From: Escherichia coli
GTDB taxonomy: Bacteria; Pseudomonadota; Gammaproteobacteria; Enterobacterales; Enterobacteriaceae
DNA: 64,000 nt
NCBI RefSeq assembly: GCF_041248615.1
Contig: NZ_CP158426.1
Strand: one strand, 5' to 3'
A program made the position numbers and the translations under genes. This document shows positions 1 to 56,208 of the stretch, piece by piece. The notes under the pieces were generated by a model. That model was not told the DNA's origin. It saw only the letters and a program-made list of their open reading frames with translations, and made no database searches. Position 1 is the first letter of the stretch. Every line of letters begins with the position of its first letter.

Positions 1-77
1 GCATGGCTATGGATTGATAAATGATATCAAAACGTATCAGCTAGTTTCCACGGTTAGAGAAGATGGCTATTATACTT

Positions 78-107
78 CAGAAACGGAACAACAGCGTTCC
101 GTTTCTG
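78..107. repeat. Perfect 12-bp inverted repeat with 6-nt loop (CAGAAACGGAAC-N6-GTTCCGTTTCTG)
   Basis: Read directly from sequence; lies upstream of the first operon; no clear T-run so not a classical terminator. Confidence 0.5.
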
Positions 108-389
108 ACGGACTGATTCTTCCGTAAATTCAGGTGTAAATCGTGGTGTGCCCATACGCTCCTCCTATGCTCAAACTATAGGGCAGGATCGTCTACCGGG
201 GTGGGGTCAGTCCACCAATGACTGAGAGGTGTCTGTTAAACCCGTGGCGATTCAGACATTACTCTTCCTATGTACACTGGAGTAGATTGAATAATCATAT
301 AATAATCAATCGGTTGAAATCATTTAGGGCTTTTGTATTAATAGTATTGAGATGGTTTGGTCATGGTTCCAGTTCATAAGGAAATAGTT

Positions 390-1442
390 ATGGGAATTAG
401 TGTTCGAGTCTTGCAAGCAAATCATGGTGATTGTTTCTTAGTTAGTTATAAGAGCTCAGATAGTGTTTACAACTTGCTAATTGATGGTGGTAATAGCGCC
501 ACATTTATGTTTGGGGCTCAAGGGCGCTACAGTGGTGAGCTTAAATGTGTACTCGATGATTTGAAAAAAGAAGGTCAGAAAATTGACTTGGTTATCTTAA
601 CCCATATAGATGATGATCATATCGGTGGTTTGCTTAGGGCTTTTGAAACACCAGGTTATCTATGCCAAATGGCTTCTTCTATCTGGTTTAATTCTTCAAG
701 ATTTATCACCAAACATTTTAAGGTTGATGAAATTTCAGACAATGATGTCTGTCTTCAAAGTAACTCAACGCAGACAAGTGCTAGGCAAGGGAAGAAACTG
801 GAAAACTTACTTGATGAAATCAATTGCGAACGGCAACCCATAGTTATTGCGGGGCAGAAGTTTACAAGGGGTCCGTTCACATTCACGATCTTATCCCCTG
901 AAGAAGATAATCTACGTAGCCTTCTTCATAAGTGGCCAGATGAGCCAGATCCGGTTACGACATCCGGTGCTTCAAGGGATTATGGAATGAAATTTGAGGA
1001 TATTTTGTCTAATGATAAATTCCAGAGTGATCAATCTGTTTATAATGGTAGCTCAATTGCTTTCATCCTTGAAGCTGATGGTAAGGCTATGCTCTTTTTG
1101 GGCGATTCACATGATGAAAATATTGTCCGTAATTTACGATCTCTTGGTTTTAATGAAGGTAACAAGCTCAAACTCGACCTCGTGAAAATTTCTCATCATG
1201 GTAGCCAGTATAATACTAGCCCTGAATTTTTGTCGCTCATAGATGCGCAAAACTTCATTATATCCACTAATGGGAGTAAGCACGGACTTCCTGATAAGAG
1301 AACTATTGCACGGATTTTATCTTCAGGAGAAGGCAAAATCGGCTTCAATTATTCGCACATTATCCAGGAGATGCTTCACGAAAATGAGGTTCCATTGTAC
1401 TCTTCTCGCCTGGTAGCATTAAATGGAGAAATTAGGCTATAA
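390..1442 (+). CDS. Metallo-beta-lactamase-fold hydrolase (ComEC/Rec2-like MBL family)
   Basis: ORF track 357..1442; ATG at 390 preceded by AGGAAA; motifs LVILTHIDDDHIGG (variant of HxHxDH) and KISHHGSQYNTS typical of MBL-fold enzymes; AT-rich. Confidence 0.7.
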   Translation: MGISVRVLQANHGDCFLVSYKSSDSVYNLLIDGGNSATFMFGAQGRYSGELKCVLDDLKKEGQKIDLVILTHIDDDHIGGLLRAFETPGYLCQMASSIWFNSSRFITKHFKVDEISDNDVCLQSNSTQTSARQGKKLENLLDEINCERQPIVIAGQKFTRGPFTFTILSPEEDNLRSLLHKWPDEPDPVTTSGASRDYGMKFEDILSNDKFQSDQSVYNGSSIAFILEADGKAMLFLGDSHDENIVRNLRSLGFNEGNKLKLDLVKISHHGSQYNTSPEFLSLIDAQNFIISTNGSKHGLPDKRTIARILSSGEGKIGFNYSHIIQEMLHENEVPLYSSRLVALNGEIRL

Positions 1443-1443
1443 A

Positions 1444-2727
1444 ATGACCGCTTCAAATTTGATGGCTTCTAACGCAGTGATCGTGAACGAGGGCAGTGGT
1501 GTTCTTGTTAATGCGATGACTCAAGATTATTCATACGTACTCACAGCAAAACATGTGTTAGCGAAATCAGGTAGTCAAAATATCGTTACTAATCAATATG
1601 GTAACAGTCTTAGAGTGCTTGATGTATTGGTGGGTCAGGAAGAGCATTGCGACTGTGCTGTAATCAAAATTGAATATGTACCAACTGTTGCTCAGCAGTC
1701 CTTCCCTGCAATAGCATTACCCAATTCGGCTTTGCTAAAGTTTGTTGGTTTTCCGGGAACCGAGAGACTAAGCGCTACCCCGCTGAAAATCTATGATGGG
1801 CATGTAACAGATGTAAGGGAGGGGCTGATTAGCTTCACGATAGAAGGCAGTCCCTCAAAAACCGCAATCGATGGAATGTCTGGCGGTGGAATGTATTACA
1901 TAGTTAATGAACATCCCCTCCTTGTTGGTGTAGAATTTGGGATGGACAGTATTCGTCAAGATCTACAATATGGACGTATACAATGTAAAAGTTTAATTGT
2001 TTTTGAAGAGATAATTAATTTAAACAGTGCTGCTCCAATGGTTCCCGCTTATTTGGAGTGTTTTTCACGCTTAAAAGAATATATCTTCGATTTTAATGTT
2101 GTTGATAAAAATAGAGTTCTGAATCTGAAAAACGCATTAAATATTTTTGCAGATGAACTTATAGACAAAGGTATGCCACCACCATTTGAATTAATGTCCA
2201 AATACAAAACTGATTTGTTAGTAGGTCCATATCAAGTTGACGATGTTAAAAATAAAGAATTATGGGTTGCATATTTTGAATTTCTGATAATTTGCGCAAT
2301 TCTTGATAATGTAAGTATTGCCAATAGTTCTTATATAGAAAGTTTAGAGCGGCGTAGGAGAATTCTTTATACTCCGGATGGAAGTAATTGGGTCGGAAAG
2401 CTTGATGTAATCTTAAAAGTTGCTCGAAAGTTATTAGATAAAGATGGCATAGTAATTGTGGCATCTCCAGAAAATGGAGCCGAATTATTACCGGATGATT
2501 TTGAAGTCGATAGGGTTATAAGGAATATTGCGCGAATCGCTAATTCAGGTCCACTTGCTCCTATCGATCAAGTTGAAAAAGAGATGTATAAGAGTTTTGT
2601 ATTAACGCATCTTGAAGGGCTGAGAAAAAAATGTGTTATAAACAAAGAGAGAATGTATGCAGAAGTTGAAGCTGGCTTAGACCAACTTCAGACGTTTAAG
2701 GAAAGCTTTAATGAATTTATTAAATAA
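1444..2727 (+). CDS. Trypsin-like serine peptidase with uncharacterised C-terminal domain
   Basis: ORF track 1423..2727; ATG at 1444 directly after upstream stop (TAA 1440-1442); candidate triad His (LTAKHV), Asp (CDCAVIKI), Ser (GMSGGGMYY); about 240 aa C-terminal extension of unknown fold. Confidence 0.7.
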   Translation: MTASNLMASNAVIVNEGSGVLVNAMTQDYSYVLTAKHVLAKSGSQNIVTNQYGNSLRVLDVLVGQEEHCDCAVIKIEYVPTVAQQSFPAIALPNSALLKFVGFPGTERLSATPLKIYDGHVTDVREGLISFTIEGSPSKTAIDGMSGGGMYYIVNEHPLLVGVEFGMDSIRQDLQYGRIQCKSLIVFEEIINLNSAAPMVPAYLECFSRLKEYIFDFNVVDKNRVLNLKNALNIFADELIDKGMPPPFELMSKYKTDLLVGPYQVDDVKNKELWVAYFEFLIICAILDNVSIANSSYIESLERRRRILYTPDGSNWVGKLDVILKVARKLLDKDGIVIVASPENGAELLPDDFEVDRVIRNIARIANSGPLAPIDQVEKEMYKSFVLTHLEGLRKKCVINKERMYAEVEAGLDQLQTFKESFNEFIK

Positions 2728-3262
2728 AGAATTTGATTTGGAATTTCTTAAATCTAGATTTTCTGATGCAGATTTCTATTTTTTTGTTTCTAATGATGAC
2801 TCATCTTATATTTCATGCGTAGCATGCTATTGTGAGAGCGCTAATTACGTGGTTGCGAATTGGACAGCGATTCAGAATTATTTATCTGCTTACTACCAAC
2901 CGAAGGATGAATTAGCTCTTTGGAATATATATTTAGTTTTCTTTTGTTCCGAAAAATTACCGATTTGGGATAAGTACCTTATAGATAATGATAAGTATTC
3001 TGTCAGAAAATTAATTATTGACGGGTTAACTACTCTGCCAAGTATTTCCGAAACTGTAACTTTTCTGAACAATCATCTGCTAGGCGCAGACCTAGAATTA
3101 ACTGAAATAGAGGAGAAGAAGGAGATAGAGTTATCATTAATTGAGTATATAAGTGGAACTCCTTTAGATTCAAAGGTTGAGTCGAGAGATGAGCGTATGA
3201 GCAGAATTGATAAAATTATTAATCTAGTGAGTTCAAATAAAAATGAAAATAAAAAAAGTTGA
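2711..3262 (+). CDS. Hypothetical protein, 183 aa, middle gene of candidate operon
   Basis: ORF overlaps upstream gene by 17 nt and downstream gene by 20 nt (translational coupling); no recognisable motif. Confidence 0.5.
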   Translation: MNLLNKEFDLEFLKSRFSDADFYFFVSNDDSSYISCVACYCESANYVVANWTAIQNYLSAYYQPKDELALWNIYLVFFCSEKLPIWDKYLIDNDKYSVRKLIIDGLTTLPSISETVTFLNNHLLGADLELTEIEEKKEIELSLIEYISGTPLDSKVESRDERMSRIDKIINLVSSNKNENKKS

Positions 3263-6200
3263 AATAGAAGGCTTTCGAGCATACAGATTCAAGGAAGATG
3301 GTACTTTCGATTTTACAAATAAAGATGATACGCCATCCAATTTTGTAGCGATCTATGCACCCAATGGCTTTGGAAAAAGTTCATTCTATGATGCGGTTGA
3401 ATGGGCTATTACTCATAATTTAGATAGATTTGCGGGTGAATATAATAAAAAAAATTATGAGCAAGCTGCCAGGAGCACGAAAGAGGACGGTGTTGCACAA
3501 AAAATACTACGTAATAAAGATGTACCAGACAATATTCCTACTCGTGTAACAGTTTTCACTACTTTACCAACTCCATTCGAACAAAGTTTAGGAACAGTTC
3601 GTTCTGATTCTAGAGATATAAGAATCGGCGAGAATAAAAATAAAATCAATGGCTATTTTAGAAAAGTGGTTCTTAGTCAAGATGAAATAGACCGTTTTTT
3701 AAAAGAAGCAAAGCCGCAAGATCGTTATAAGATGTTTATGGAGAGTTTTGGAGGTGAATGGGAAAAGGCGAGACAAGAGCTAACTATACTATTGAATGAC
3801 AATAAGGCGGTTTTGTTAAATCTCGAAAAAAACAAAAATGAACTTCAGGAACAACTAGATCAGCCTGTTGATGCGTCAACATTCATACAATTTAATAAAA
3901 TAGCATCTGAACTTGTAGCAGAAGGTGAAAGTTTACCATTAGTAGATGAAACAACTATAGTTAATACACAGCATGAGCTTTTGGAAAAAATAATCACAAG
4001 AAGTCACGAAATAAATTTTTCCTTAAACAAGAAAAAAATATTGAGAGATTCGATTTCTGAGTATATTTTAAAATTTCCTGATATCAGTTTTCGTACAACC
4101 CAGATTATCGAGAAAAAGAATAGACTAGAAAAAATAAATAAAGGGATAGAAGATGTCGGTCGTTATAAGACATTTCAGTCTACTCTTGAAAAACTGACTA
4201 TCGAAAAGAAAAAGATAAGTCAGAGCTTAAATTTTATAGAAGAATTAGATGGTTTATCCCAAGAGTTTTTAAGCTTGGAATTTAACTTGGAATCAGCTCG
4301 AAAGAAACATAGAGAGATTTCATATAATTATGAAAATGAAAAAACTCTCCTTGATAATTTATTCCAAACAAGAAACCAAAATGATGCTGATTTATCTTCA
4401 ATTGACAAGCGATGCTTATCTATACGTTCTACGTTAGAAAACGCTACGGTTACTTATTCTAATATATCTAATATACAAAATAAAATTTTAAATATAGTTT
4501 CTACGCAAACAGAATTAGAGCACAAACTTAATCAAGTTAGATCCGAATACCAAAAAAACAAATCCGAATTAAACAAAGTATCAGATTTAACAATAACCGC
4601 CAAATCATTACTTTCATCAGACTTAAGTCTAATTGATTTATCTTCAGATTTATTAAAAGAACTAAACAACTTATCGCAAGAACTAAATATATTGGTCCTA
4701 CATGATCAATCAATTCATAACACACAAGAATCTCTTTCTGCACAAATGGGAGTTCACGAACGTCTAATTGCATCGGGCCTTGAGTACTTAAGTTTATGGC
4801 CGACTAATATATGTCCTTTATGTCACAAGCCGCATGACTCTGAGTCCTCTCTTAGAGAACAAGTAACAAATACTGACGTAATATCCATGCTTAGTAAAGA
4901 GAATGCAGCTAAGCTCGAGATATCCTCAAAACGGCGGTCAGAGTTAAATGGCAAGATAGAATCCATCGTACAGAAAGCCCTTGAAATTAAAATGAGTAAA
5001 CTTGAGGTATTAAGTAAAAAGGTCAATCAACAAGGAAATGAGATACATCGAGAAGAACAGCACTATACAGCTCTTTTAGCAGAAAAACAGTCTGTCCAAA
5101 ATCAGTTAAACGAGTTGCAGAAGGCTGTAGCTGGACTAACTAAAGATGAATTATTAGCTCGCTTAGATGCTGAACTTAAAGAATTAGAGGCCAAGAAAAA
5201 TGAAGTGATAAAAAACAAGCTGACCTTGACGAAAAATATTAACGTTAAAAGAACGTTGATTACAGAGTTAAGTGGGGCGATCAATTTACTTAATACGCAA
5301 ATTCATGAAATGATGTCATCATCTAACTATTTAAAAACAAAAGCTTACTCTGAAGAAAATGGCTTGTCATCGGAGTTTTTGAAAGAACATTATGATGATA
5401 AACGCCATTTTTACCTTAAAAATATAAATGGACTCAATTTTGAGATTAATAATATTACCAGCCAATTAAATGATCTTCAGAAAGCTATGATAGCCGATGA
5501 AATGTGGCTGGATTATGAAGAAATGATTTCTGAAAAAGAGAATTTCGAGGATTATATTTCTAAATCAGAAGCGGTTTTACAATCTTATTCATCATTATTA
5601 AAGCAGCATTTTGAACTACCAAAATATGAATCTTTAGTTGAATTGAAAGATTTCCTGATAAGCTCACTTGATAAAGAAACTAGGCTTTATAATGGTCTAG
5701 AGGAACGGCTTGGAAAATATAATTTATTATCAGAACTTTTGAAAACAGCAGAGTCGTTTGTAAAAAGTATTAAGTTGCAGAATGATATTAATGAAACCTT
5801 AGGTCTTATAGAAATAAGAAAAGAAGTTGATTTAGCTCTGACTAAGGAACGAAATCAAGTAATAGAGGAACTTAGAAACTTGATAAAATCTTTCTTTTAT
5901 GAGGAACTCATTAATTCTATTTATAAGAGAATAGATCCACATCCATCACTTAAGAAAGTGGTGTTTCGCCCAGATTTTGACTCATCAGATAAACCTGGTC
6001 TTAATATAGTTGTCAGTGATGAAAAAGGTGATATGGTATCTCCAATATTATTCTTTAGTGCAGCGCAATTAAATATTCTAAGCCTTAGTGTCTTTTTAGC
6101 AAGTGCTTTGCATGCAAAAGATGATAATGGAAATGTAATTGATGTGATTATGATTGATGATCCAATTCAATCAATGGATTCAATTAATATCCTATCCACA

Positions 6201-6380
6201 ATTGATCTTCTTAGAAGTATTACCGTTAGATTCAACAAACAAATAATAATATCAACACATGACGACAATTTCTTTGGCTTGCTCCAACGTAAAATCCCTT
6301 CGGAAATATTGGGTGCCAAGTTTCTTAAATTGGAGAAATTTGGGGTTGTAGTGCCTGTTGATGATTTAAATAATACATGA
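3243..6380 (+). CDS. SMC/Rad50/RecF-like ABC ATPase with long coiled coil and central CxxC motif
   Basis: N-terminal Walker A YAPNGFGKSSFYDAVEWAI; long K/E/L/Q-rich coiled-coil middle; CPLCHKP near centre; C-terminal signature-like FSAAQLNILSLS, Walker B VIMIDDP, His-switch ISTHD. Confidence 0.8.
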   Translation: MKIKKVEIEGFRAYRFKEDGTFDFTNKDDTPSNFVAIYAPNGFGKSSFYDAVEWAITHNLDRFAGEYNKKNYEQAARSTKEDGVAQKILRNKDVPDNIPTRVTVFTTLPTPFEQSLGTVRSDSRDIRIGENKNKINGYFRKVVLSQDEIDRFLKEAKPQDRYKMFMESFGGEWEKARQELTILLNDNKAVLLNLEKNKNELQEQLDQPVDASTFIQFNKIASELVAEGESLPLVDETTIVNTQHELLEKIITRSHEINFSLNKKKILRDSISEYILKFPDISFRTTQIIEKKNRLEKINKGIEDVGRYKTFQSTLEKLTIEKKKISQSLNFIEELDGLSQEFLSLEFNLESARKKHREISYNYENEKTLLDNLFQTRNQNDADLSSIDKRCLSIRSTLENATVTYSNISNIQNKILNIVSTQTELEHKLNQVRSEYQKNKSELNKVSDLTITAKSLLSSDLSLIDLSSDLLKELNNLSQELNILVLHDQSIHNTQESLSAQMGVHERLIASGLEYLSLWPTNICPLCHKPHDSESSLREQVTNTDVISMLSKENAAKLEISSKRRSELNGKIESIVQKALEIKMSKLEVLSKKVNQQGNEIHREEQHYTALLAEKQSVQNQLNELQKAVAGLTKDELLARLDAELKELEAKKNEVIKNKLTLTKNINVKRTLITELSGAINLLNTQIHEMMSSSNYLKTKAYSEENGLSSEFLKEHYDDKRHFYLKNINGLNFEINNITSQLNDLQKAMIADEMWLDYEEMISEKENFEDYISKSEAVLQSYSSLLKQHFELPKYESLVELKDFLISSLDKETRLYNGLEERLGKYNLLSELLKTAESFVKSIKLQNDINETLGLIEIRKEVDLALTKERNQVIEELRNLIKSFFYEELINSIYKRIDPHPSLKKVVFRPDFDSSDKPGLNIVVSDEKGDMVSPILFFSAAQLNILSLSVFLASALHAKDDNGNVIDVIMIDDPIQSMDSINILSTIDLLRSITVRFNKQIIISTHDDNFFGLLQRKIPSEILGAKFLKLEKFGVVVPVDDLNNT

Positions 6381-6406
6381 TTTATTTAGTGTGTTAACCA
6401 TAAAAT

Positions 6407-6440
6407 AAGAACTGGGCCAGTGACGACCCAGTTCTTATTT
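6407..6440 (+). terminator. Hairpin terminator after ATPase gene
   Basis: AAGAACTGGG-N10-CCCAGTTCTT followed by ATTT, 27 nt after stop at 6380. Confidence 0.5.
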
Positions 6441-7696
6441 ATAGGGGAACCTATTTTTATCGCAATAAATTAAGAGCGAAGATATGGTGAAAATTGTTAA
6501 AATATGAATTTTTTTAATTTTTTATCTAAAGCCCCTGTTTTCATTATCGTATAAATCAATCTGGACGATTTGTTCTTCAGGTGCAAGGGTATCCGCAAAC
6601 TAGCGCAGGCTATCACCGCCTATAAGCTCCAGAATATGATCAAGTCCATGCCCTCCTGACAACCCAATCGCCTGTAATGACCATTCAGGAATGATTTGCT
6701 CTTTTGATGACTCAACCACAAATGTATCGAGCTCAGTCTTTGCTTAGAGCAGAATTTGAGCCCAAGACTTCCACTCGTATCATCGTAGGTCAGCGTTTCT
6801 CAGAAAATAACCCATGTAACCACGGCATCCGTCTCCGAATGTTATCCTAGAAACAATATTGAGGGGGGAATGTAGAATCATAACCTCTGAATTAACGTAG
6901 ATTAAATCATTCGATCTAAATCAGAGCATTCATAGTGATGGTACACTCAGCACCAGACAAAGATCTCTAGGGGTTTGTTCTAATAAACATGGCCCTCATT
7001 CCTTCTGGTGAAATTCGGAATCTGATTGCGTAGGATAATTACATCCAGGAATCGGGCTAGCATTACAGCCCCCTAAGGGTGTTGTTTGCAACGGTTCATG
7101 TTTGTCTGAGTAACTATATTCCTGAATGTGTTGCTCCGAATTTACGGATTGCCTTGCAGAAAAGGGCTGTTCTGGCGTTGTGCTTTGAAAGGCGTACACC
7201 TGAGGAGCACAGAGCCACAGGAAGGGCAGTAGGGTGCAGCGGGCGAGTACATTCATATATTCTCCAGACAGAATTCATACCAATTATATGATATGCCAGA
7301 TTGACTCAATAAAGCGTTAACGAAGAACGAAAATATAAGACCAGGTATAGAACTCGACATGCCGATAGTCGCCGGGAAATATCGTGGCCAGATTTTTTGT
7401 TAATGCTCATAGTCAGGCAACAAGGGTCGCTGCAGTAATGACTTCTGAACCTTATAACAAATTTCGGCACGACACTTTTATCATCTTTTTCATAATAAAA
7501 CCTCCGTTTTTGTTTTAATCGTCCTCCGGATGTTTCGGACATTGGATGCCCGTAACATCCGGAGGCTGCGGGTGCGGGCGGCAAAGAGCCCGTGAAGATG
7601 CCCGGAATGAATGGCAAACCCCCTCAGGAATGAAGAAAATACGCAATCAATGCTGGGGTGCTTTGTTGATCACTTTTACTGAAGTACTTTTCTATC

Positions 7697-8416
7697 TCAG
7701 AAGTAGGTTGTCCAGAAAGAGGAAACTGGCATCGCCAGTACCAATGCAGGAAGCATACTGGCTACCGGGAAGACCTTGATACCGGAAATACGCAGGCCGG
7801 TCGCCACCATTAGAACGCCACCCACAGCTGAAAAGTCGGCCTGCATGGCAGGCGTGGTCAGGGGCAATATATATATCGCGCTGTAGGCGAGTGCTAACTG
7901 AATGATAAGCTGGGGGAAAGCGACTAATGCCACGGCGTAACCCAGGGTTGTGGCAAAAATGAGGGCGGTCAGCAAATCCAGGAACGCTTTCGCGATAAGG
8001 ATACTCGAGTCCCCGGTCATGCCTTCGTGCATCGCACCAAAAATACCGGTGCCACTGGCACAAAAAAGGACGATGATCGCCACATAGTTTTGTAAAAACT
8101 GCGCCTGTGAGTCTTTGTCTCCGGGATCGCTTTTCACGACGAGCTCCACCAACCCACGGGCTTGTCCGCCCAGGTGGCTTATCCCTTTTTCCAGATAGCA
8201 GAGCTCGCCCACCAGTGTGCCGAGAAGGACCGATAGAACCATGACGGGCATATGGCTGACACTTGTCACAAGGACGATCCCCATACACAGGGAGGCAGCA
8301 CCAAAAATGAGCGGCATTGAGGTACGTAACCTTTCAGGTAGACGTGAGCTAATGATGGCTCCTGCCATCCCGCCGATCACGACGGCAGAGCCGTTGAACC
8401 ATGGGCCTGTAATCAT
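7697..8416 (-). CDS. DUF554 family inner-membrane protein (YqgA-like)
   Basis: Hydrophobic 239-aa ORF; recalled similarity to E. coli YqgA including NYVAIIVLFCASGTGIFG and ILPLTTP; overlaps UbiX-like stop by 4 nt. Confidence 0.7.
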   Translation of the reverse strand: MITGPWFNGSAVVIGGMAGAIISSRLPERLRTSMPLIFGAASLCMGIVLVTSVSHMPVMVLSVLLGTLVGELCYLEKGISHLGGQARGLVELVVKSDPGDKDSQAQFLQNYVAIIVLFCASGTGIFGAMHEGMTGDSSILIAKAFLDLLTALIFATTLGYAVALVAFPQLIIQLALAYSAIYILPLTTPAMQADFSAVGGVLMVATGLRISGIKVFPVASMLPALVLAMPVSSFWTTYF

Positions 8417-9027
8417 AGCGATTTACTCCTGTTATTCAGGTTGGGAGTTTCACCCCAGCGCGGCAATGTGTCGCAATCAAGGTCGAGTAAACTCAGCGCC
8501 CGCGCAACACTATGAGCGAAGATGTTCTCAGTACTTGCAGGGCGTGCATACCAGGCAGGTACGGGTGGAAAAATGATGCCGCCGGTTTCGGTAACCTGAA
8601 GCATGTTACGAAGGTGCCCGGTATGCAGCGGCGTTTCCCGTACCATCAGAACCAGCCTCCGGCGCTCTTTCAGGGTCACATCGGCTGCCCGCACCAGCAA
8701 ACTGTTGGTTAAGCCCGCCGCAACAGCGGCGAGGGTGTTCATAGAGCAGGGGACAATCAACATCCCGGATGCCCTGAACGAACCGCTGGCGATGTCGGCT
8801 GCAATATCATCAAAGGGATAAATTACATCAGCCAGCTTATGAACGTCGTCTTCTGACAAAGTGGTTTCCAGACTGCGGGTCAGATGAGCGGCAGGAGAAA
8901 TCACAACGTGACTTTCCACGTTAAGTTGTCGCAGATAACGCAGGGCCTGCACTCCATATAAAAAACCGGATGCACCACTGATCCCAATGATGACGCGCTT
9001 GCGAGGAGAACATTCAGATGTCGACAT
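8413..9027 (-). CDS. UbiX/Pad1-family flavin prenyltransferase
   Basis: N-terminal VIIGISGASGFLYG motif typical of UbiX; 204 aa; directly downstream of UbiD-like gene. Confidence 0.85.
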   Translation of the reverse strand: MSTSECSPRKRVIIGISGASGFLYGVQALRYLRQLNVESHVVISPAAHLTRSLETTLSEDDVHKLADVIYPFDDIAADIASGSFRASGMLIVPCSMNTLAAVAAGLTNSLLVRAADVTLKERRRLVLMVRETPLHTGHLRNMLQVTETGGIIFPPVPAWYARPASTENIFAHSVARALSLLDLDCDTLPRWGETPNLNNRSKSL

Positions 9028-9037
9028 TATGGCGTCC

Positions 9038-10522
9038 TCAGTACTTGAAGTTATCCGGGAGGAAACGACTGATCTCGACCTCCATGAATTCGCTGCGGCG
9101 AAACTGGCCTTTCATCGTGAACGGAACGGTACAGTCGAAAATAGTTTTACAGGCGATCCCGTGGTCGCGGACGGAGTAACTAAAAGCCGGGTCAGAGGAC
9201 GGATCGAGGGGATGGCACCTTACGCCGGGTATGAACACCGTGCTGATATCCCCCTGATAGCGTGTCGTCATTGCCCATATCACGTCATTGAGATCGAAAA
9301 TATCCACATCGTCATCAACCAGAATCACATGCTTGAGTTCCGAGAATGCGGAGAAGGCCAGAAGAGCCGCCTGGCGCTGACGACCTTCATCGTTTGGCAG
9401 ACGTTTTTTCACCTGCAATACGGCAAGATATTTTCCGGTCCCGGGTGACGGGCAGTGAACATTTTGCACAAAGCCGGGAAGGGCGCGCTCCACCAGTTGC
9501 AGAATACTGGCCTCGGTGGGGATCCCTGCCATATTGGTATGCTCGTCACTTGGACCAATGCAGGTCTGTAGAATTGGGTGACGGCGGTGGGTGATGGCTT
9601 TCACTTTTATCACTGGCACCATTTGCTGTGCCTGTCCGGTATAGCCGGGGAATTCCGGCATGGCTTTACCACTGTTGGTATTTTGATCCTCCCTGACCCG
9701 ATAGTTAGGAATGAGTTCCCCCTCGATAACGACTTCGGCGTTCGCAATGGCCCGGGCATTCACGGTCAGACACTGGCACAGCTCAACAGGCTGTTTACGC
9801 AAGCTCCCTGCCACTGACAGTTCGTCAAAACCAAGTGGAGTTGTGGGCGGTTCGAAGCAGGCACCGATTTCAATGGCTGGGTCAACACCAATGCTGATCG
9901 AGATGGGAAGTGGGGCCCCATCTTCCTCTGCTTTCTGACGGAACAAATCCAGATGCCGACCGGGAACGAAGTACATGGATATTTCATCCCTGTTTTGCAC
10001 GCACAGTCGGTGAATAGTGATGTCATGCTCGCCGGTATGTGGATCGGCGGCGTAGCACATACCGAGAGTGAAGTAAGGACCGGCATCCTCCGGCGTATTC
10101 GTGGGTGCTGGCAGGATATTGAGGATACTGAAATCCGGATCGGATGCCAGATGGACTACTTCCTGACAGACGGCATTTTCCTGCGGAATAACGACAGGAC
10201 TTATCGGGGTGCTTACCGCGTCTTTCAGTAAAAAGGCCAGCTTATCGGGTGTGGTATCCAGTAGCCGGGCCACGCGTTTTCGCGAGGCGAGAAGACCTAT
10301 CAGCACTCGCATATCGGTATAGCCTTTAATCCGGTTAAAGAGCATGGCTGGACCGATACGAGTCGGACGCATGACCGTACCGTGTGCCCCAATGTAGCGG
10401 TACACCCCTGACAGTTCTGCACTTGGATCAACGGGTTCATCGGTTTCGATAAGCTCATCATCAAACTTGCGCAGTACGGCCAGCGCACTGCGTAGGTCAG
10501 TCACTTTTTGTGTTTGAGACAT
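9038..10522 (-). CDS. UbiD-family (prFMN-dependent) decarboxylase
   Basis: 494-aa ORF with UbiD-like size and sequence character; paired with UbiX-like gene as in non-oxidative aromatic acid decarboxylase operons. Confidence 0.8.
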   Translation of the reverse strand: MSQTQKVTDLRSALAVLRKFDDELIETDEPVDPSAELSGVYRYIGAHGTVMRPTRIGPAMLFNRIKGYTDMRVLIGLLASRKRVARLLDTTPDKLAFLLKDAVSTPISPVVIPQENAVCQEVVHLASDPDFSILNILPAPTNTPEDAGPYFTLGMCYAADPHTGEHDITIHRLCVQNRDEISMYFVPGRHLDLFRQKAEEDGAPLPISISIGVDPAIEIGACFEPPTTPLGFDELSVAGSLRKQPVELCQCLTVNARAIANAEVVIEGELIPNYRVREDQNTNSGKAMPEFPGYTGQAQQMVPVIKVKAITHRRHPILQTCIGPSDEHTNMAGIPTEASILQLVERALPGFVQNVHCPSPGTGKYLAVLQVKKRLPNDEGRQRQAALLAFSAFSELKHVILVDDDVDIFDLNDVIWAMTTRYQGDISTVFIPGVRCHPLDPSSDPAFSYSVRDHGIACKTIFDCTVPFTMKGQFRRSEFMEVEISRFLPDNFKY

Positions 10523-10651
10523 TACGTTTTCCTCAGTAAGTCGCCGGGAGACAGCATGCCCGGTGTGCTTTTATCTTCATCCTGCAGGCAATCACAGGAC
10601 GAGCCGTTACATCACTGACAGTATGTGAGGCAACATAAATCCCCGTCTAAT

Positions 10652-10675
10652 CACATTAACGACGTTTTTAATGTG
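10652..10675. promoter_or_regulatory. Interrupted palindrome CACATTAA-N8-TTAATGTG, candidate LysR-type regulator binding site
   Basis: Located in divergent intergenic region between the UbiD-like operon and the LysR gene; dyad of the kind used by LTTRs. Confidence 0.4.
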
Positions 10676-10710
10676 GGATTGTTATCGAAAAATAGTGATT
10701 GGAGGAACGT

Positions 10711-11592
10711 GTGGACTATCGGTATTTGCATGCATTTGTGGTGCTTGCCAGAGAACTGCATTTTGGAAAAGCCGCACTGCGGCTCAACATCACGCAGCCA
10801 GCCTTAAGCCGTCAGATTAGAGTGCTGGAAGATCAGCTTGGCATGGTGCTATTTACGCGTGATCGTCGTCATGTGGCGCTGACTGTGGAAGGAACTCAGC
10901 TTGCAGCGGAGGCGCGGAGCGCCGTCAGTCATTACGAAAAAATGCTGAGCCGTGCGAGTAGCCTTCGAAAAGGCTATAAAGGACAACTCATACTGGGTTA
11001 TGTCGGATCTTCCATTCTTGATCCCGCCCTGACACGGTTAATCACCTGTTTTCGCGAGACTAAACCGGATGTTGAGATTGTTATTGAGGAGCACAACGTT
11101 GACGAACAGCTCACCCTCCTGCTCGACCATCAACTGGATATGGGGCTGCTCCGATCGCCTGTTCCGCATTTTGCCAACCTGGACTACGTGGATATCGCCA
11201 CCAGGTCACTCATCGCCGCAGTACCGCACACGCATCCGCAGGCAGGAGTCGGTAAAATAGAGCTGGAGACGTTGTCCGGGGATACATTTATGATCCAGAA
11301 AGATCCGCCCGGGGTCGGGCTAGGCTGGTCTGCATTACATGCCTGTGAGATGGCCAGTTTTGTCCCACCCAAAATCTATTTTACTCGCGATGTTGCGGTG
11401 GCTATTGGCATGGTGTCGATGGGAATAGGAGTTACGCTGGTGCCAGAAACCCAGCGTTCTGTAACGTTGCCTAATGTCTGCTACTGCCTGCTGCACGATC
11501 CCGAGGTCACAACGACCTTAACGCTTTGCTGGCCGAAATTCAGGAAAAGCAGGGAATTGATAGAGTTTGTACGCTCTTTAACGCTTGGTTGA
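10711..11592 (+). CDS. LysR-family transcriptional regulator
   Basis: N-terminal HTH LHFGKAALRLNITQPALSRQIRVLEDQLG; GTG at 10711 with GGAGG 5 nt upstream (ORF track starts at TTG 10699); divergent from decarboxylase operon. Confidence 0.85.
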   Translation: MDYRYLHAFVVLARELHFGKAALRLNITQPALSRQIRVLEDQLGMVLFTRDRRHVALTVEGTQLAAEARSAVSHYEKMLSRASSLRKGYKGQLILGYVGSSILDPALTRLITCFRETKPDVEIVIEEHNVDEQLTLLLDHQLDMGLLRSPVPHFANLDYVDIATRSLIAAVPHTHPQAGVGKIELETLSGDTFMIQKDPPGVGLGWSALHACEMASFVPPKIYFTRDVAVAIGMVSMGIGVTLVPETQRSVTLPNVCYCLLHDPEVTTTLTLCWPKFRKSRELIEFVRSLTLG

Positions 11593-12133
11593 ATCTTAAG
11601 AAGCTGCAGTTGAGTCATAGCCAGCGATCAAAATTGAGAAGACAAAACCGGGGAGAGGTGCCCGCAGTTTCTGCCCCAGCTCCCATCTTCAGGAAGATGT
11701 GTTTCAGGAATGCATTCGTGATGCTGGGGATAGCGGCAAGACGATTTTCTCATCGGGTAACTCTGCGGTATCGGAACAGTTGACGACGGCAGGGTGGTGA
11801 ATGGGAACCTCAGGATGAAGCGCTCGGGCAAGAGGGATGGACTGTGCTGAAGAGAACACTGACAGAACGAGCATGATGCTTGCAAAAAGGGGACTCTGGA
11901 TATTCATTGTTTATCTCCTGATGATATTCATCGCTCCAGAGAATACGCTTGCCACTCTTTTTATTTGTTTTCCTGAATTAAAAATGCCCGGTTTTATGTG
12001 GTTCTTCCGTAAACGTTATTACATTAATTAACATCTAGTTTCTATCTCCGAAATGAGGTAAAAAAATAATTGTCGTGGTTTTTATCAAACAAATTTACCG
12101 GCAGCTCAGATCCGAACTAATACCTGGAAATTC

Positions 12134-12182
12134 AAACCCCAAACCCCAAACCCCAAACCCCAAACACCAAACCCCAAACACC
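12134..12182. repeat. Tandem heptanucleotide repeat (AAACCCC/AAACACC) x7
   Basis: Read directly: four AAACCCC, then AAACACC, AAACCCC, AAACACC; complementary strand is (GGGGTTT)n. Confidence 0.9.
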
Positions 12183-12412
12183 ATTTCACCGCTGGCGTGT
12201 AAGGGGCTCTATATCTGTTTATTCAGGGATAGTTTTTTCTCCCGTGTGATTTCCGTTCATGTATCTGCTTCCGGTTAATCGTTTCCCAGCACAACCCGTC
12301 CCGCAAGGGTAAATGGCACGCCTGCTGCGCCCTTGCGGGATGGAACGATGCCGGGAAAGCGAACCGTCAGGCGATACGAAGACGAAAATCACACCACTGA
12401 CGGAGAAAAAAA

Positions 12413-13357
12413 ATGACTATGTCCCTGCATACCAAGATAAGTGCCCCTAACACGACAGCGGCGACCAGCGTATCCTCGCTGGATCTGTCAGGCTCCTCAA
12501 AAACGAAATGTTCAACAGCCAGAACCGATATTTATCAGACTGTTACCGACAGCATAATTGCGGCGCTGGAAACCGGAGTAAAACCTTGGGTGTGTCCTTG
12601 GCAGCGAGCTCCCGGTATGTCCGGTTTACCGTCCAATTACGCCACTGGTAAGGCTTACAGCGGAATGAATATCATGTTGCTTTGGTGCAGCGCGTCAAAA
12701 CAGGGATTCTGTGATTCACGCTGGATGACCTACAAACAGGCAAAAGCGGTAGGTGGGCAGGTGCGCAAGGGAGAACACGGCACTACCGCGATTTTCTATA
12801 CCACGCTGGAAAAGGAAAATGATAACGGAGAAACTGACTATATTCCTATGCTGAAAGCATTCACTGTGTTTAATGTTGAACAAATTGACGGTTTACTCCT
12901 GAGTGATGATGCCGTTTTTCCGGCAGAGATCTTTGAGCCATTACCACGTGCAGAAGCACTTTTTCGTAGTAGCGGTGCAACCATTATTGAAAAAGGACAG
13001 AATGCTTTTTTTACACCATCAACCGACGAAATTCGCTTACCTGAACGGTATCTTTTTATTGATGCTGCTAATTTCTACGCAACCGGCCTGCATGAGCTCG
13101 TTCACTGGAGTGGGGCAAAAAGTCGGCTGAACCGTGAAATGAAAGGGAAATTTGGCAGCGAGGGGTATGCGTTTGAAGAGTTGATCGCTGAGCTGGGGAG
13201 CGCATTCCTGATGGCGGATCTGGGGATAGTTGGAGAAGTTCTGCATGACAGTTATATCGCTTCCTGGCTTAAAGCACTGAGGAATGATAAACGCTATATT
13301 TTCAAGGCCGCCAGCGCGGCATCGAAAGCACATCGCTATTTGATGGATAAAAGCTGA
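12413..13357 (+). CDS. ardC: ArdC-like antirestriction protein (ssDNA-binding N-domain plus zincin-like metallopeptidase C-domain)
   Basis: DIYQTVTDSIIAALETGVKPW N-terminal ArdC-type motif; HExxH motif GLHELVHWSG in C-terminal half; hairpin after stop. Confidence 0.75.
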   Translation: MTMSLHTKISAPNTTAATSVSSLDLSGSSKTKCSTARTDIYQTVTDSIIAALETGVKPWVCPWQRAPGMSGLPSNYATGKAYSGMNIMLLWCSASKQGFCDSRWMTYKQAKAVGGQVRKGEHGTTAIFYTTLEKENDNGETDYIPMLKAFTVFNVEQIDGLLLSDDAVFPAEIFEPLPRAEALFRSSGATIIEKGQNAFFTPSTDEIRLPERYLFIDAANFYATGLHELVHWSGAKSRLNREMKGKFGSEGYAFEELIAELGSAFLMADLGIVGEVLHDSYIASWLKALRNDKRYIFKAASAASKAHRYLMDKS

Positions 13358-13651
13358 GTAGCAAAAAGCCGCAAAGGAATGCGGCTTAATGGGCTGGGGG
13401 TACTAAACCAGTAAAGGTTTAGTCAGTAATATTAGTGAAGCAGAGCAAGTATCGAACAGTCATATTCCTGTAGTGGTATTAAGACAACCTTAAGAAGGGA
13501 CTGATGTATAGCTACTCTTGTATACCCATCCATGGAAAATTCGGTTGTATTGCCGGGTTGATATGTGCAGGTTGGTCCCGACCCAAGAAGTTTTTACTGT
13601 GAAAATTGTCAAACTATATCAATGTGGTAACAGCTTCTCTTGTCCCTTTGG

Positions 13652-14002
13652 TTATTTCAAATTGGACCGGGCTATCTGTTGCAACACGGTTGCTCTGCTT
13701 GAAACAGAGTTAACATATGCAACATCAGATACTTTGAGTTTGATCAGATCATAGCCTCGTAGCTTACTGTCCAAGGTCATATTGAACAGAGTTAAATCGC
13801 GCATTTTACCTTCCATTTCAAGCCTGATTCGGATCCCCCCTGATATGAGATATCTGAAGTGGTCTTTTTGGTCAGTGATACTTACAATACGGTCTTTGTC
13901 CCACGGTGACGTGTTCATACTCAAAGCTCCTGTAATGTTGGAGATTTGAGCATGGTTATCCCTCATGAGCGAGGAACGGACAATGTCCCTTGCGCGATCC
14001 AA
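13652..14002 (-). CDS. Hypothetical protein, possible recombinase-like remnant
   Basis: 116-aa ORF; weak resemblance (LRGYDLIKLKVSDV) to tyrosine recombinase core motif; no clear start context. Confidence 0.25.
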   Translation of the reverse strand: MDRARDIVRSSLMRDNHAQISNITGALSMNTSPWDKDRIVSITDQKDHFRYLISGGIRIRLEMEGKMRDLTLFNMTLDSKLRGYDLIKLKVSDVAYVNSVSSRATVLQQIARSNLK

Positions 14003-14200
14003 GATTGATTTTTCTTATTAAATTAAGCTATGGCTGACCTACGAACGATAGGCAAAATGCTCCTAAAGCTACGGCTTATGACAGTAAAAAACATATTGAT
14101 AAAAATCTGAGCTGGTTTAGAATGCTATAATGGAATAATTATTTATTTTCGGCCTTCAGTTTGATCATTTTTAGAAATCACCCTTTTGAAGGAATCTACA

Positions 14201-14995
14201 ATGGAATCAGAAGAAACGAAAGAAGAGAGTTATCAACAGCGTTCGGAGTTTATCAGAAAAATAATTCAACAGCCTGTTGAGGGTGTCATATCTTCATGCA
14301 CTATACCAAAAAAAATAATTCAATTTTGGGATTCATCCAATACTATCCCTAATGATGTCAGACATTGCATGAAATCATGGCGTATCTTAGAACCTTTTGG
14401 GTATGAGTATTTACTATATGATTTCGTTAGCGCCCAAGAATTTATTAAACATAATTTGGGTGAAACATACAGTGAAGCTTTTGCCAAGTGTACTCATCCT
14501 GCTATGCAATCAGATTATTTCCGATTATGTTATATCTCGGTAAACGGGGGATTTTATGTTGACACTGATGATGTTTATCTGGGTAGTGAGATAAGTAGTT
14601 TTTTCACGGATGATAAGTTAAAAATACAACCTTTATGCTACGATATTTCCACCGATTCTATGATTCCACCAGAAATTTTTACAAAGGAAAATACTTATGA
14701 AGAATCTTGGATTTTTTATTTCAACAACAACCCGTTAATTGCTCCGCCTCATCATGTTATCATTGATAAGGCACTAGAGCAATCCACATACTTACTTAAT
14801 AAATCAAGCTATCCTCTCACAGATATTCAGTCAACAACTGGTCCTGGTAATCTATCTAAATCTATTTTCTCGTGTCGCGAGGAAATAGATTTATTATCCC
14901 AGATTACGGTAGTATCAAACTGGCAAGATATTGCAGAAACTAAGTGGGATTTAGAATACAGAGCTGATTCTAGAAATTGGCGCTTGATGAATTAA
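14201..14995 (+). CDS. Glycosyltransferase with DXD motif (Gly_transf_sug-like)
   Basis: IIQFWDSSN...CMKSW and GGFYVDTDDVY motifs; ATG 14201 with GAAGGA upstream (track start is TTG 14186); AT-rich. Confidence 0.65.
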   Translation: MESEETKEESYQQRSEFIRKIIQQPVEGVISSCTIPKKIIQFWDSSNTIPNDVRHCMKSWRILEPFGYEYLLYDFVSAQEFIKHNLGETYSEAFAKCTHPAMQSDYFRLCYISVNGGFYVDTDDVYLGSEISSFFTDDKLKIQPLCYDISTDSMIPPEIFTKENTYEESWIFYFNNNPLIAPPHHVIIDKALEQSTYLLNKSSYPLTDIQSTTGPGNLSKSIFSCREEIDLLSQITVVSNWQDIAETKWDLEYRADSRNWRLMN

Positions 14996-15010
14996 CATGG
15001 ATTTTTAATA

Positions 15011-17212
15011 ATGAACATTAAAAATAATTTGAAAGGTATTAGCCGTTTTTTTTATTCTTTTTACTTACGCTCTCGGTTACTTCTCCCAGCGCAAAAATCA
15101 TCGACCTTTAATACATTAAATCAGAATGAAGGCGTTATTAGCAGGATTTACGCTATAAACTTAGAACGGGAAGCGATTAGATGGGCAGATTTAAATAAAG
15201 AACTGGGTAAAATACTAGATAAATCTAATAAAAAATTAACGAGCCAATTAACCAGATTCTCTGCTATAAACGCCAAAGAAATGTCAGACATTCTCAATGA
15301 GGAAGAGGTTATTCCTTATTATACTTTAGCAGACCAGTTGTACGTTGACCCTCAACCAAAAATCTTACCCGATAAATTTGATCTCGATGTCCCTATAAAA
15401 ATGAGTAAAGCGGAAATTGCTGTAGCATTATCGCATCTAAATGTTATTAGGCTTGTTGCAGAAGGTTCTGATGCATATGCTTTAGTGCTTGAGGATGACG
15501 TGTATTTTGAAAGAGATTTTGCCAAAACCTTAGATGCTGCTTGGTCTGAAATGATTCAAGCTGACAGATCTTCACCTGGTTTTGATATCTTATATTTGTC
15601 ATTTAAAGAGGTTATGAATGGCGCGAAAAAGAAAATTATTTCGAAAAGCATATTTAAACCAGAGCGAGGGTTATGGTATTTTTCAGGATATGTATTATCT
15701 AAGAAAGGAGCAAATAAAATCCTCTCACTCCTCCCAACTTATGGACCAATTGACTTATGGATAAATCATCAATTTGAGAAACTCGATGTGAGGGCAGTAT
15801 ATAAGTCGATCATTTCTCAGAGGTTGGATTTTAACTCTTCAAATTCCTATTCAATATTACCTACCTTAGTGAAGATTGGTATTATTGACAATGAAAAAGC
15901 TTCCAGTTTTAATGAACTTCCAAATTATTGGCCTGTTTTTGCATTTGGTGTAAGTGGTTCGGGTATTTCTTCTTTGGGTATGGCACTATCAATGCTTGGC
16001 TATAAGTGTTGTAGTGATATTGATAGACTTCCCAATGCAGACTTAAAAAATCTATTAAGTAATTCAGAGCAGAATGAATTCAATGCTTATGTAAATGTTG
16101 GCTGTCTCAGTAAGTATATCGGCATATTAAAAAAACAATATCCAAAAGCAAAATTTATAATTACCACGAGTGAATCAAAAGAAATCGAAGATGTTATTTT
16201 TAATATAATTGAGGAGATCGTTGATACTGACTATGTTGTATTGCATTCAGATGAAAAAAACAAATGGAAGGTTATATGTGAATACCTTCAATGCCCACCA
16301 CCTATTTCAGCGTACCCAGAAATGGCTGACATTATTCCTAGGCAGATTATAGATATCACCAGTGCAGCACAAATCAATAATTCAGAAATTAACATGATAC
16401 ATGACATTTCCCCTTGGATATTAGAAAGAAAGAATTTTTCAGGAAATGGTTTTTTTATAAAAGATAATCCGAAGAGAATTGAAAAAGAGCTTGCTGATTT
16501 CTTCATTAATGATTCACTACAAAATATTAATAATAACTATTGGGAAATTCGCGATGATACTTTCCCTGGAAATCTTGGACTGTTTCGACCTCAAAATGTG
16601 ATTCAAAATGATATTAGTGGTTTAGGTCTTGTAGTTAAGGAGGAACAGTTAGGCGTTAGAGAGTTTAGTGCTGCTGCGATTTCAAGTAGAATGAAGTTCC
16701 TATATGGCCGATTTGAAGTGTCCCTACGAGCGGCAAATGTTGCAGGGATAGTAACCGGCTTCTTTTTACATAGAGATTCGCCTCGTCAAGAAATCGATAT
16801 TGAGTTTGTTGGAAATCGATCTGATCATATGTTGATCAATGTTTTTTATAATCCTGGTGATGAAGGTGCAAAGTTTGATTATGGATATCGTGGTACACCA
16901 ACTCTTATTCCTTTAGGTTTTGATGCTTCTGAAGAGTTTCATGATTACATGATTGAATGGAGTCCTGATGAGATAAAATGGTTTGTGGATGGAGTTATGG
17001 TTTATCGTAGAGGAGTTTGGGGGCCTACACCTATACCTCATTTACCCATGACCCTTCATGCTAACACTTGGCCAACCCGTTCCAAGGAACTGGCGGGACG
17101 TCTCCACACGCGTTCCTTACCCTGTATCACTTATATTAGGAAAATATGTATTGATGCAACAATGGATGTTAATAATCCAAAATTAAATGACCAGACAGTA
17201 GTGGCTGGTTAA
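15011..17212 (+). CDS. Multidomain protein: GT25-like glycosyltransferase N-domain, central region, GH16-like C-terminal domain
   Basis: N-terminal RIYAINLEREAIRW and LVLEDDVYFE resemble family 25 glycosyltransferases; C-terminal EIDIEF matches the GH16 ExDxxE catalytic motif; 733 aa; AT-rich. Confidence 0.65.
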   Translation: MNIKNNLKGISRFFYSFYLRSRLLLPAQKSSTFNTLNQNEGVISRIYAINLEREAIRWADLNKELGKILDKSNKKLTSQLTRFSAINAKEMSDILNEEEVIPYYTLADQLYVDPQPKILPDKFDLDVPIKMSKAEIAVALSHLNVIRLVAEGSDAYALVLEDDVYFERDFAKTLDAAWSEMIQADRSSPGFDILYLSFKEVMNGAKKKIISKSIFKPERGLWYFSGYVLSKKGANKILSLLPTYGPIDLWINHQFEKLDVRAVYKSIISQRLDFNSSNSYSILPTLVKIGIIDNEKASSFNELPNYWPVFAFGVSGSGISSLGMALSMLGYKCCSDIDRLPNADLKNLLSNSEQNEFNAYVNVGCLSKYIGILKKQYPKAKFIITTSESKEIEDVIFNIIEEIVDTDYVVLHSDEKNKWKVICEYLQCPPPISAYPEMADIIPRQIIDITSAAQINNSEINMIHDISPWILERKNFSGNGFFIKDNPKRIEKELADFFINDSLQNINNNYWEIRDDTFPGNLGLFRPQNVIQNDISGLGLVVKEEQLGVREFSAAAISSRMKFLYGRFEVSLRAANVAGIVTGFFLHRDSPRQEIDIEFVGNRSDHMLINVFYNPGDEGAKFDYGYRGTPTLIPLGFDASEEFHDYMIEWSPDEIKWFVDGVMVYRRGVWGPTPIPHLPMTLHANTWPTRSKELAGRLHTRSLPCITYIRKICIDATMDVNNPKLNDQTVVAG

Positions 17213-49855: not shown

Positions 49856-49931
49856 TGGCTCCTCTGACTGGACTCGAACCAGTGACATACGGATTAACAG
49901 TCCGCCGTTCTACCGACTGAACTACAGAGGA
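49856..49931 (-). tRNA. asnT: tRNA-Asn (anticodon GUU)
   Basis: Reverse complement reads TCCTCTGTAGTTCAGTCGGTAGAACGGCGGACTGTTAATCCGTATGTCACTGGTTCGAGTCCAGTCAGAGGAGCCA; matches recalled E. coli tRNA-Asn; next to mtfA as at the E. coli asnT locus. Confidence 0.95.
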
Positions 49932-50922: not shown

Positions 50923-51012
50923 GGAGAGATGCCGGAGCGGCTGAACGGACCGGTCTCGAAAACCGGAGTGGGGGCAACTCCACCGGGGGTTCAAATCCCC
51001 CTCTCTCCGCCA
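50923..51012 (+). tRNA. serU: tRNA-Ser (anticodon CGA)
   Basis: 90-nt GGAGAGATGCCGGAGCGGCTGAACGGACCGGTCTCGAAAACCGG...CCCCCTCTCTCCGCCA with long variable arm. Confidence 0.9.
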
Positions 51013-56207: not shown

Positions 56208-56208
56208 A

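Follow-up and report, generated by a model that had tools for sequence, protein, structure and literature searches.

The Lamassu family of defence systems was defined by Millman et al. (2022), who listed 'hydrolase' and 'protease' among its effector domains and found an abortive-infection phenotype and a dependence of defence on LmuC as well as on the effector and the SMC ATPase. The 'long' Lamassu systems are recognised by a Walker B motif of the form hhhhDD, by the length of LmuB and by a longer LmuC and C-terminal domain (CTD) (Haudiquet et al., 10.1101/2025.04.02.646746). A validated system of the long type, that of B. cereus B4077, is a hydrolase-protease system (Haudiquet et al., 10.1101/2025.04.02.646746), and it is described there, with reference to Millman et al. 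(2022), as defending against phage. For short Lamassu systems the structural basis of activation has been solved: cryo-EM placed a monomeric LmuA on an LmuB2-LmuC complex through contacts that involve the CTD, and sensing of DNA ends is followed by release of LmuA and by CTD-driven formation of tetramers, so that the C-terminal domain of LmuA serves first in binding to LmuB/LmuC and later in oligomerisation (10.1101/2025.04.02.646746).

A second group of systems, Hachiman and AVAST, encodes an MBL-fold protein upstream of a protease fusion, and this MBL is a gated pro-nuclease (Tuck et al., PMC12799240; 10.1101/2025.09.03.673762). The protease cuts two inhibitory loops of the MBL and thereby frees a non-specific DNase; cleavage occurs after Ile in long-form MBLs (motif I[S/G]N; I118 and I218 of HamM, I134 of EpiAvs1a) and within KSS in short-form MBLs, and forced dimerisation of the protease suffices for activation (PMC12799240; 10.1101/2025.09.03.673762). 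The Hachiman protease cleaved its MBL partner exclusively, and defence depended on the active site of that MBL (PMC12799240). Lamassu/ABC-three component (ABC-3C) systems were named as hosts of the trypsin-MBL module (PMC12799240; 10.1101/2025.09.03.673762), in the former work by extrapolation, and proteolytic MBL activation in Lamassu has been stated as an open question (10.1101/2025.06.23.660979).

We compared these systems with a four-gene operon located at positions 390-6380 (plus strand) of a window of 64,000 nucleotides of Escherichia coli DNA (RefSeq assembly GCF_041248615.1, contig NZ_CP158426.1), the window being the whole stretch that was analysed. The operon encodes an MBL hydrolase, a protease fused to C-terminal domain 4 (CTD4) of the ABC-three component systems (LmuA), middle component 1 (MComp1, LmuC) and an SMC/Rad50-like ATPase (LmuB). 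The four genes are consecutive, overlap or abut, and each of them matches a PADLOC Lamassu model over its full length. The first gene (390-1442, plus strand) encodes an MBL-fold protein of 350 aa corresponding to the Lamassu 'hydrolase', a putative gated pro-nuclease (PADLOC LmuA model PDLC03854, 7.6e-125). The second (1444-2727, plus strand) encodes LmuA, a trypsin-like serine protease of 427 aa fused to CTD4 (PADLOC LmuA model PDLC03855, 1.1e-122 over residues 1-427). The gene for LmuC, or ABC-3C middle component 1 (2711-3262, plus strand, 183 aa), overlaps both of its neighbours, sharing 17 nt with the protease gene, and was assigned by PADLOC LmuC model PDLC03873 (1.8e-44), by Pfam MComp1 (PF20289, 1.3e-9) and by its RefSeq name. 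Finally, LmuB is an SMC/Rad50-like ABC ATPase of 1045 aa (3243-6380, plus strand) that matches PADLOC LmuB model PDLC03865 (1.6e-269 over residues 1-1039) as well as Pfam AAA_23, SMC_N and AAA_13, and carries a Walker A motif (APNGFGKS, residues 39-46), a centrally placed CxxC hook (CPLC, 524-527), the motif FSAAQ (938-942), a Walker B motif of the hhhhDD form (VIMIDD, 968-973) and STH (1004-1006).

The locus thus displays an LmuB, an LmuC encoded between lmuA and lmuB, an LmuA composed of an effector and a CTD, and an accompanying MBL gene, which are the attributes expected of long Lamassu. We conclude that the operon almost certainly belongs to the hydrolase-protease subtype of long Lamassu (ABC-3C) systems and that its LmuA is a typical representative of an established family. 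This subtype is already catalogued in Pfam, PADLOC and RefSeq, the latter using the names 'ABC-three component system protein', 'ABC-three component system middle component 1' and 'AAA family ATPase', and it is not a new system. The closest described counterpart is the Lamassu of B. cereus B4077, which likewise combines an MBL hydrolase, a protease-LmuA, an LmuC and a long LmuB, and the PADLOC models of this subtype match all four proteins of our locus end to end; the present copy differs in having E. coli as its host and an integrative and conjugative element (ICE) as its carrier, the two being compared at the level of the subtype.

The same gene order (MBL, protease-CTD4, MComp1, ATPase) was observed in loci of Pseudomonas chlororaphis, Vibrio and Pseudomonas, and also in two distant metagenomic members sharing 20-25% identity. 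In all seven loci examined, CTD4 is followed by MComp1 and then by an SMC-like ATPase of 1040-1070 aa, and in six of the seven, including the members at 20-25% identity, the MBL gene lies directly upstream of the protease gene. The remaining locus, L009, is carried by a short contig in which protease, MComp1 and ATPase are present and no MBL was found in the 545 nt of sequence ahead of the protease gene. Scanning positions 1-7700 for promoters and terminators returned counts that did not exceed the shuffled expectation, and an Rfam scan gave no match in or near the operon.

The lmuA reading frame (plus strand, stop codon at 2725-2727) offers two candidate starts in the list of open reading frames, ATG 1423 and ATG 1444, of which RefSeq uses the former and thus a longer version. 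Of 40 homologues found in other genera, 21 begin with the methionine encoded at 1444, the extensions of the remainder being unconserved, and counting from this methionine the PADLOC LmuA profile is covered from 1 to 425 of its 425 positions. For these two reasons 1444-2727, encoding 427 aa, is the best gene model, and the start at 1444 given in a preliminary description of the window is preferred to that of RefSeq. The protease domain occupies residues 1-183 (1444-1992, plus strand) and contains the triad H37/D70/S146: H37 (codon 1552-1554) lies in the context LTAKHV, D70 (codon 1651-1653) in HCDCAVIKI and S146 (codon 1879-1881; residue 146, not 145) in DGMSGGG. All three residues, including the GMSGGG motif around S146, are invariant among 40 LmuA homologues of 47-68% identity, and when more distant members of the family, with identities as low as about 20%, are aligned, the histidine is found in 46 of 46, the aspartate in 47 of 48 and the serine in 51 of 51. 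Pfam Trypsin_2 matches residues 17-150 (E 1.1e-7). An AlphaFold2 model of LmuA, computed from a 40-sequence alignment, reached a mean pLDDT of 81 and a pTM of 0.76, and its N-terminal domain was matched by Foldseek to SplA, DegS, chymotrypsin and tryptase (E about 1e-10). A double beta-barrel trypsin fold, the order His-Asp-Ser and a serine within GxSGG place the domain in the PA clan (S1). Structure prediction had been put forward in the preliminary description as a check on its proposal of a trypsin-like peptidase with an intact triad; the trypsin fold is present in the model, and triad conservation, Pfam, AlphaFold2 and Foldseek all agree. The observation of a trypsin-like protease is therefore confirmed, far beyond what could be expected by chance, and its sequence indicates that LmuA is a catalytically competent protease. 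In sequence and profile searches of the PDB the single match was a weak one, between the protease part and the trypsin-HamA protein of Hachiman (9wh1, chain A), which shares with LmuA the motif DYSYVLTAKH.

The second half of LmuA, residues 184-427 (1993-2724, plus strand), had been described as about 240 aa devoid of any recognisable motif. The segment is real, but it belongs to a recognised family: Pfam PF20280, entitled 'C-terminal domain 4 of the ABC-three component systems', aligns to residues 183-399 (E 7.7e-52), and the annotation of an 'uncharacterised' domain is hence corrected to CTD4, defined as a coupling domain of Lamassu/ABC-3C systems and here a putative docking or oligomerisation module. 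In the full-length AlphaFold2 model CTD4 adopts an alpha/beta arrangement of about twelve helices and three short strands (residues 305-309, 336-340 and 386-389), with a confidence mostly between 80 and 90 that drops below a pLDDT of 50 for residues 352-382. Haudiquet et al. (10.1101/2025.04.02.646746) did not find similarity to known domains for long or short LmuA CTDs, and our sequence and profile searches of the PDB detected no chain similar to CTD4. Fold searches with the full LmuA model were dominated by matches to the protease, and a model of CTD4 alone (residues 184-427, 25-sequence alignment) reached a pLDDT of 49, which is too poor for a fold search.

When a profile restricted to CTD4 was run against 1.84 billion cluster representatives, only 204 proteins were retrieved, nearly all of them 415-470 aa long with a match beginning near residue 180-220. 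The short CTD4 matches, such as P0272, which lies on a 956-bp contig, look like fragments. In a sample of 58 CTD4 proteins, Pfam CTD4 was found in all, trypsin families were found wherever the N-terminal part was present, and the triad was found in every full-length member. As far as sequence searches can detect, CTD4 is thus the protease-specific member of the ABC-3C series of C-terminal domains. The possibility that CTD4 serves as a universal adaptor across effector types was rejected at sequence level, all full-length matches carrying a protease N-terminal domain.

Across the distant family, E279 is the sole invariant polar residue of CTD4, and conservation elsewhere falls on hydrophobic residues or proline (P201, F207, F215, P247, W274, L278, W316 and I362). 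Conservation limited to such positions argues against a second enzymatic activity in CTD4 and argues for a role in structure, binding or oligomerisation, which would fit an adaptor. We also considered whether the segment 352-382 could be the conserved acidic LmuB-binding loop described for long LmuA CTDs, and this was unsupported, as its net charge is inconsistent across the family: the low-confidence segment (residues 344-384) is net acidic in just 30 of 58 members. I362 and the pair I374-D375 are conserved inside the low-confidence segment. By analogy with the short systems, and from the strict co-occurrence with MComp1 and the long ATPase, CTD4 probably tethers LmuA to LmuB/LmuC. The analogy is taken from systems such as Vibrio cholerae DdmABC, a short type II Lamassu, which resembles our locus in combining an effector-CTD protein, a small middle component and an SMC-like ATPase, and whose activation by release and CTD-driven oligomerisation may reflect a shared logic. 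DdmABC, for which cryo-EM structures have been solved, differs in its short LmuB, in CTD7 with MC3 and in a Cap4 nuclease that acts directly as the effector, whereas the operon described here encodes a long LmuB (1045 aa, hhhhDD), CTD4, MComp1 and a protease with a separate MBL.

The MBL gene starts at 390 according to RefSeq and its stop codon ends at 1442, one base ahead of ATG 1444. Its metal-binding motifs HIDDDH (residues 72-77) and SHHGS (268-272) are intact and conserved among homologues. RefSeq names the product a ComEC/Rec2 family competence protein; this assignment was rejected, since the protein scores 35 bits against TIGR00361, for which the cut-off is 190, and its 350 aa align only with the MBL part of ComEC. 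PDB chains similar to it are MBL domains of ComEC; compared with these it is about 70 residues longer in the interval from 82 to 213, which lies between its conserved motifs. Two isoleucines within this interval are candidate cleavage sites, I115 (nt 732-734, context EISDN) and I205 (nt 1002-1004, context DILSND), and each of them is at least 90% conserved among 120 MBL homologues. Neither context is an exact match to I[S/G]N, the cleavage motif published for long-form MBLs, and in distant homologues the loop-1 isoleucine is absent (L010) or the loop-2 isoleucine is shifted by one position (L008 and L010). The MBL protein also matches the PADLOC RTasMBL and Avs1a models, and NCBIfam Avs1a aligns to it with 3e-61, a score below the cut-off of that family.

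These features bring the MBL-protease pair close to the Hachiman (PflHamMAB) and AVAST (EpiAvs1) modules: the MBL matches Avs1a models and, relative to ComEC, carries extra residues with conserved isoleucines. The protease differs from theirs by its fusion to the CTD4 of an SMC-type sensor system in place of HamA or a STAND ATPase, and the candidate motifs EISDN and DILSND stand against exact I[S/G]N or KSS sites in the modules where cleavage was demonstrated. Judging from these sequence similarities, the pair appears to be the same transferable module as that described in PMC12799240.

On this basis a sequence of events can be proposed. LmuB and LmuC (MComp1) would act as the sensor, and CTD4 would hold one LmuA inactive, as suggested by the short Lamassu structures and by strict co-occurrence. 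Upon meeting DNA ends or replication intermediates of phage or plasmid DNA, the sensor would hydrolyse ATP, and LmuA would be released and oligomerise via its C-terminal domain, as described for the short systems. Active LmuA would then cut the two gating loops of the upstream MBL pro-nuclease, probably after isoleucine (candidates I115 and I205), by analogy with Hachiman and AVAST, and the unmasked MBL nuclease would degrade DNA indiscriminately and abort the infection. We consider it likely that the operon encodes such a cascade from sensor to protease to pro-nuclease, with CTD4 as a tether and oligomerisation module. In addition to the Avs1a and RT-associated MBL models matched by the MBL, a PADLOC match of the protease to the UG9 RT protease region lends support to this scheme. 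Counting against it, the LmuA proteins of known structure have CTD7 or CTD12, together with MC3, and not CTD4 with MComp1, so that the analogy for docking and oligomerisation crosses family boundaries; other points against it are the unconfirmed acidic LmuB-binding loop, the inexact I[S/G]N match, the missing loop-1 isoleucine of L010 and the short L009 contig with no MBL upstream. We regard it as unlikely that CTD4 gates the protease in a manner unlike the release and tetramerisation of Cap4, or that the protease has extra substrates (LmuC, LmuB or phage proteins); under such alternative gating, the LmuB/MComp1 complex could for example take up the MBL pro-nuclease and be the site of its cleavage.

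A further explanation is that the protease is itself the terminal effector, which once freed from LmuBC would degrade essential host or phage proteins, the MBL acting independently or in parallel. Millman et al. named both 'protease' and 'hydrolase' as Lamassu effector domains, the distant CTD4 locus L009 shows no MBL upstream, and the strong purifying selection on the triad is compatible with either role. This explanation nevertheless fits poorly with an MBL gene found directly upstream in nearly all of the loci, even at 20-25% identity, with the exclusive cleavage of the MBL partner by the Hachiman protease and the need for the MBL active site in defence (PMC12799240), and with the additional, putative loop material and conserved isoleucines of the MBL, which are expected of a gated substrate; we hold it to be rather improbable. 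The LmuA protease is probably an activator of the MBL pro-nuclease and not a terminal effector. The preliminary description had pictured a regulated protease effector whose C-terminal domain might dock onto the ATPase or the 183-aa protein. A protease that both of these partners almost certainly regulate was right in outline, as judged by their co-occurrence in 7/7 loci, but the description omitted the MBL gene one base upstream, and in Hachiman and AVAST the protease activates an MBL pro-nuclease instead of being the terminal effector.

The neighbouring gene product, a 'competence protein' by its RefSeq name, is most likely the pro-nuclease substrate of the LmuA protease, and the cascade, if true, would be the first demonstrated proteolytic cascade under an SMC/Rad50-type DNA sensor. 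What the ICE carries here is a complete copy of a long Lamassu system of the hydrolase-protease subtype, rare among E. coli genomes. The operon could be a convenient E. coli-native model for asking whether non-nuclease Lamassu effectors use activation by release and oligomerisation, and whether the trypsin-MBL cascade of Hachiman and AVAST runs under an SMC-type sensor.

The Lamassu cassette is low in GC (32-40%, against about 50% in its surroundings) and is located at the far end of an ICE that encodes ArdC, MobC, a coupling protein and a VirB-type T4SS, with its integrase gene at 48423-49694 and its insertion at tRNA-Asn (49859-49931). IS3 remnants flank the cassette. It was detected in just 9 of 5426 complete E. 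coli genomes, five of which carry a 90%-identical copy (corresponding to 273-6587) in a different, smaller tRNA-Asn island, with all four reading frames retained. Related cassettes are cargo of Tn7-like elements and other islands. Low GC, location on an ICE, rarity and mobile relatives are typical of mobile defence systems. Rarity would also be in line with a cassette that has decayed or lost its activity and is carried along by the ICE without serving any function now, as would the flanking IS3 remnants and the state of the protease gene in strain 2018-06-4CC, where it is interrupted by ISApl1. Here, however, four intact open reading frames cover their profiles end to end, every catalytic and ATPase motif is present, and the 90%-identical copies elsewhere have kept their four frames, which makes decay a very improbable explanation. 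A housekeeping role, in which an HtrA/DegS-like quality-control protease would stand beside a ComEC/Rec2-type competence nuclease, has in its favour that the protease domain has its closest neighbours, by structure and in NCBIfam, in DegS and DegQ and that RefSeq names the MBL after ComEC/Rec2, but it is effectively refuted by failed membership tests and barely conceivable, as the protease scores about 23 bits against TIGR02037/TIGR02038 (cut-offs 416-423) over residues 12-98 only, LmuA has no PDZ domain in Pfam, shows no indication of a signal peptide and is a cytoplasmic protein of a defence operon and no member of HtrA/DegS (S1C), the MBL falls far short of the ComEC cut-off and is devoid of the membrane channel part, and the cassette combines low GC and an ICE location with co-occurring Lamassu components and relatives on Tn7-like elements and islands. 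The stretch is 100% identical to E. coli NRZ14408.

An integrative conjugative element (ICE) of approximately 50 kb carries the Lamassu cassette as cargo at its distal end; the element is inserted at a tRNA-Asn gene (window 49859-49931), and its integrase gene lies at window 48423-49694. Besides this integrase, the element encodes, across window 7697-49931, ArdC, MobC, a T4 coupling protein and a VirB-type T4SS, and its further cargo comprises UbiD/UbiX decarboxylase genes, a GT32 glycosyltransferase, a family 16 glycosylhydrolase, hchA and porins. A second copy of the cassette, 90% identical, was observed at positions 9001-15318 of comparison locus L007, its limits corresponding to window 273-6587. 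In strain NCTC9087 and four other strains, this copy belongs to another tRNA-Asn island, which is much smaller, and lies next to DUF4150/PAAR-like and DUF2169 genes. The cassette appears to move as one unit between islands of the same hotspot.

Just 5' of the cassette, window 72-254 holds a fragment approximately 91% identical to regions of other E. coli genomes annotated as IS3-family transposase. Farther upstream, beyond the window (locus L001), a frameshifted IS3 transposase gene is accompanied by a frameshifted gene for an Ig-like-domain protein. On the other side, approximately 1.3 kb devoid of annotated genes (window 6381-7696) separates the end of lmuB from a DUF554 gene; only short ORFs and no Rfam match could be detected in this interval. 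Its segment at window 6877-7500 shares 87.5% identity with unannotated sequence of another E. coli strain.

Two of the RefSeq annotations within the cassette deserve comment. The stand-alone 350-aa protein of the upstream MBL hydrolase gene (window 390-1442) is labeled 'ComEC/Rec2 family competence protein', a misleading name since the protein aligns to the MBL part of ComEC only and scores far under the TIGR00361 cut-off. The protease gene is annotated from the ATG at 1423, which yields 434 aa and a 20-nt overlap with the MBL gene; protease homologues from other genera begin at the methionine of 1444, and the 7-residue extension from 1423 is unconserved.

An ISApl1 element interrupts the protease gene of E. 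coli strain 2018-06-4CC (locus L002, 3074-4190; equivalent to window ~2073). The insertion point lies directly 3' of the YLECFSRL codons, at residue ~210, and parts the protease domain from most of the C-terminal domain CTD4, the two halves being named 'S1 family peptidase' and 'ABC-three component system protein' in RefSeq. This split gene is a natural knock-out.

Related cassettes are also carried as cargo by Tn7-like transposons (locus L004, 1-4422; distant family member L008, 1-3666). The cassette of a Vibrio genome adjoins genes for TniQ and Csy2/Csy3/Csy4 of a type I-F CRISPR-associated transposon, and that of a metagenomic contig adjoins TnsA-like and TniB genes. At the distant metagenomic locus L010 (7175-9527), a four-gene cassette is directly followed by a bona fide sbcD-sbcC pair, recognized by Metallophos/SbcD_C and the SbcC Walker B; this adjacency is curious because Lamassu has been proposed to have evolved from SbcCD. 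At another distant locus, L009 (1-6349), a protease-CTD4 gene is accompanied by genes for a 144-aa MComp1 and for the ATPase, and a DUF6602 gene lies 3' of the ATPase gene. No MBL gene was found in the 545 nt available upstream of the protease-CTD4 gene on this short contig, tblastn with the MBL being likewise negative; this stretch instead holds a 144-aa ORF without Pfam matches.

In window 50923-64000, a lambdoid (Qin/Rac-like) prophage adjoins tRNA-Ser (window 50923-51009). It carries the DicF RNA (window 55438-55489, minus strand) and hokD with the sok RNA (window 61662-61836), together with a frameshifted integrase gene, an exonuclease gene, dicB, ydfABC, a YdaT-family toxin gene and a gene for an FRG-domain protein.
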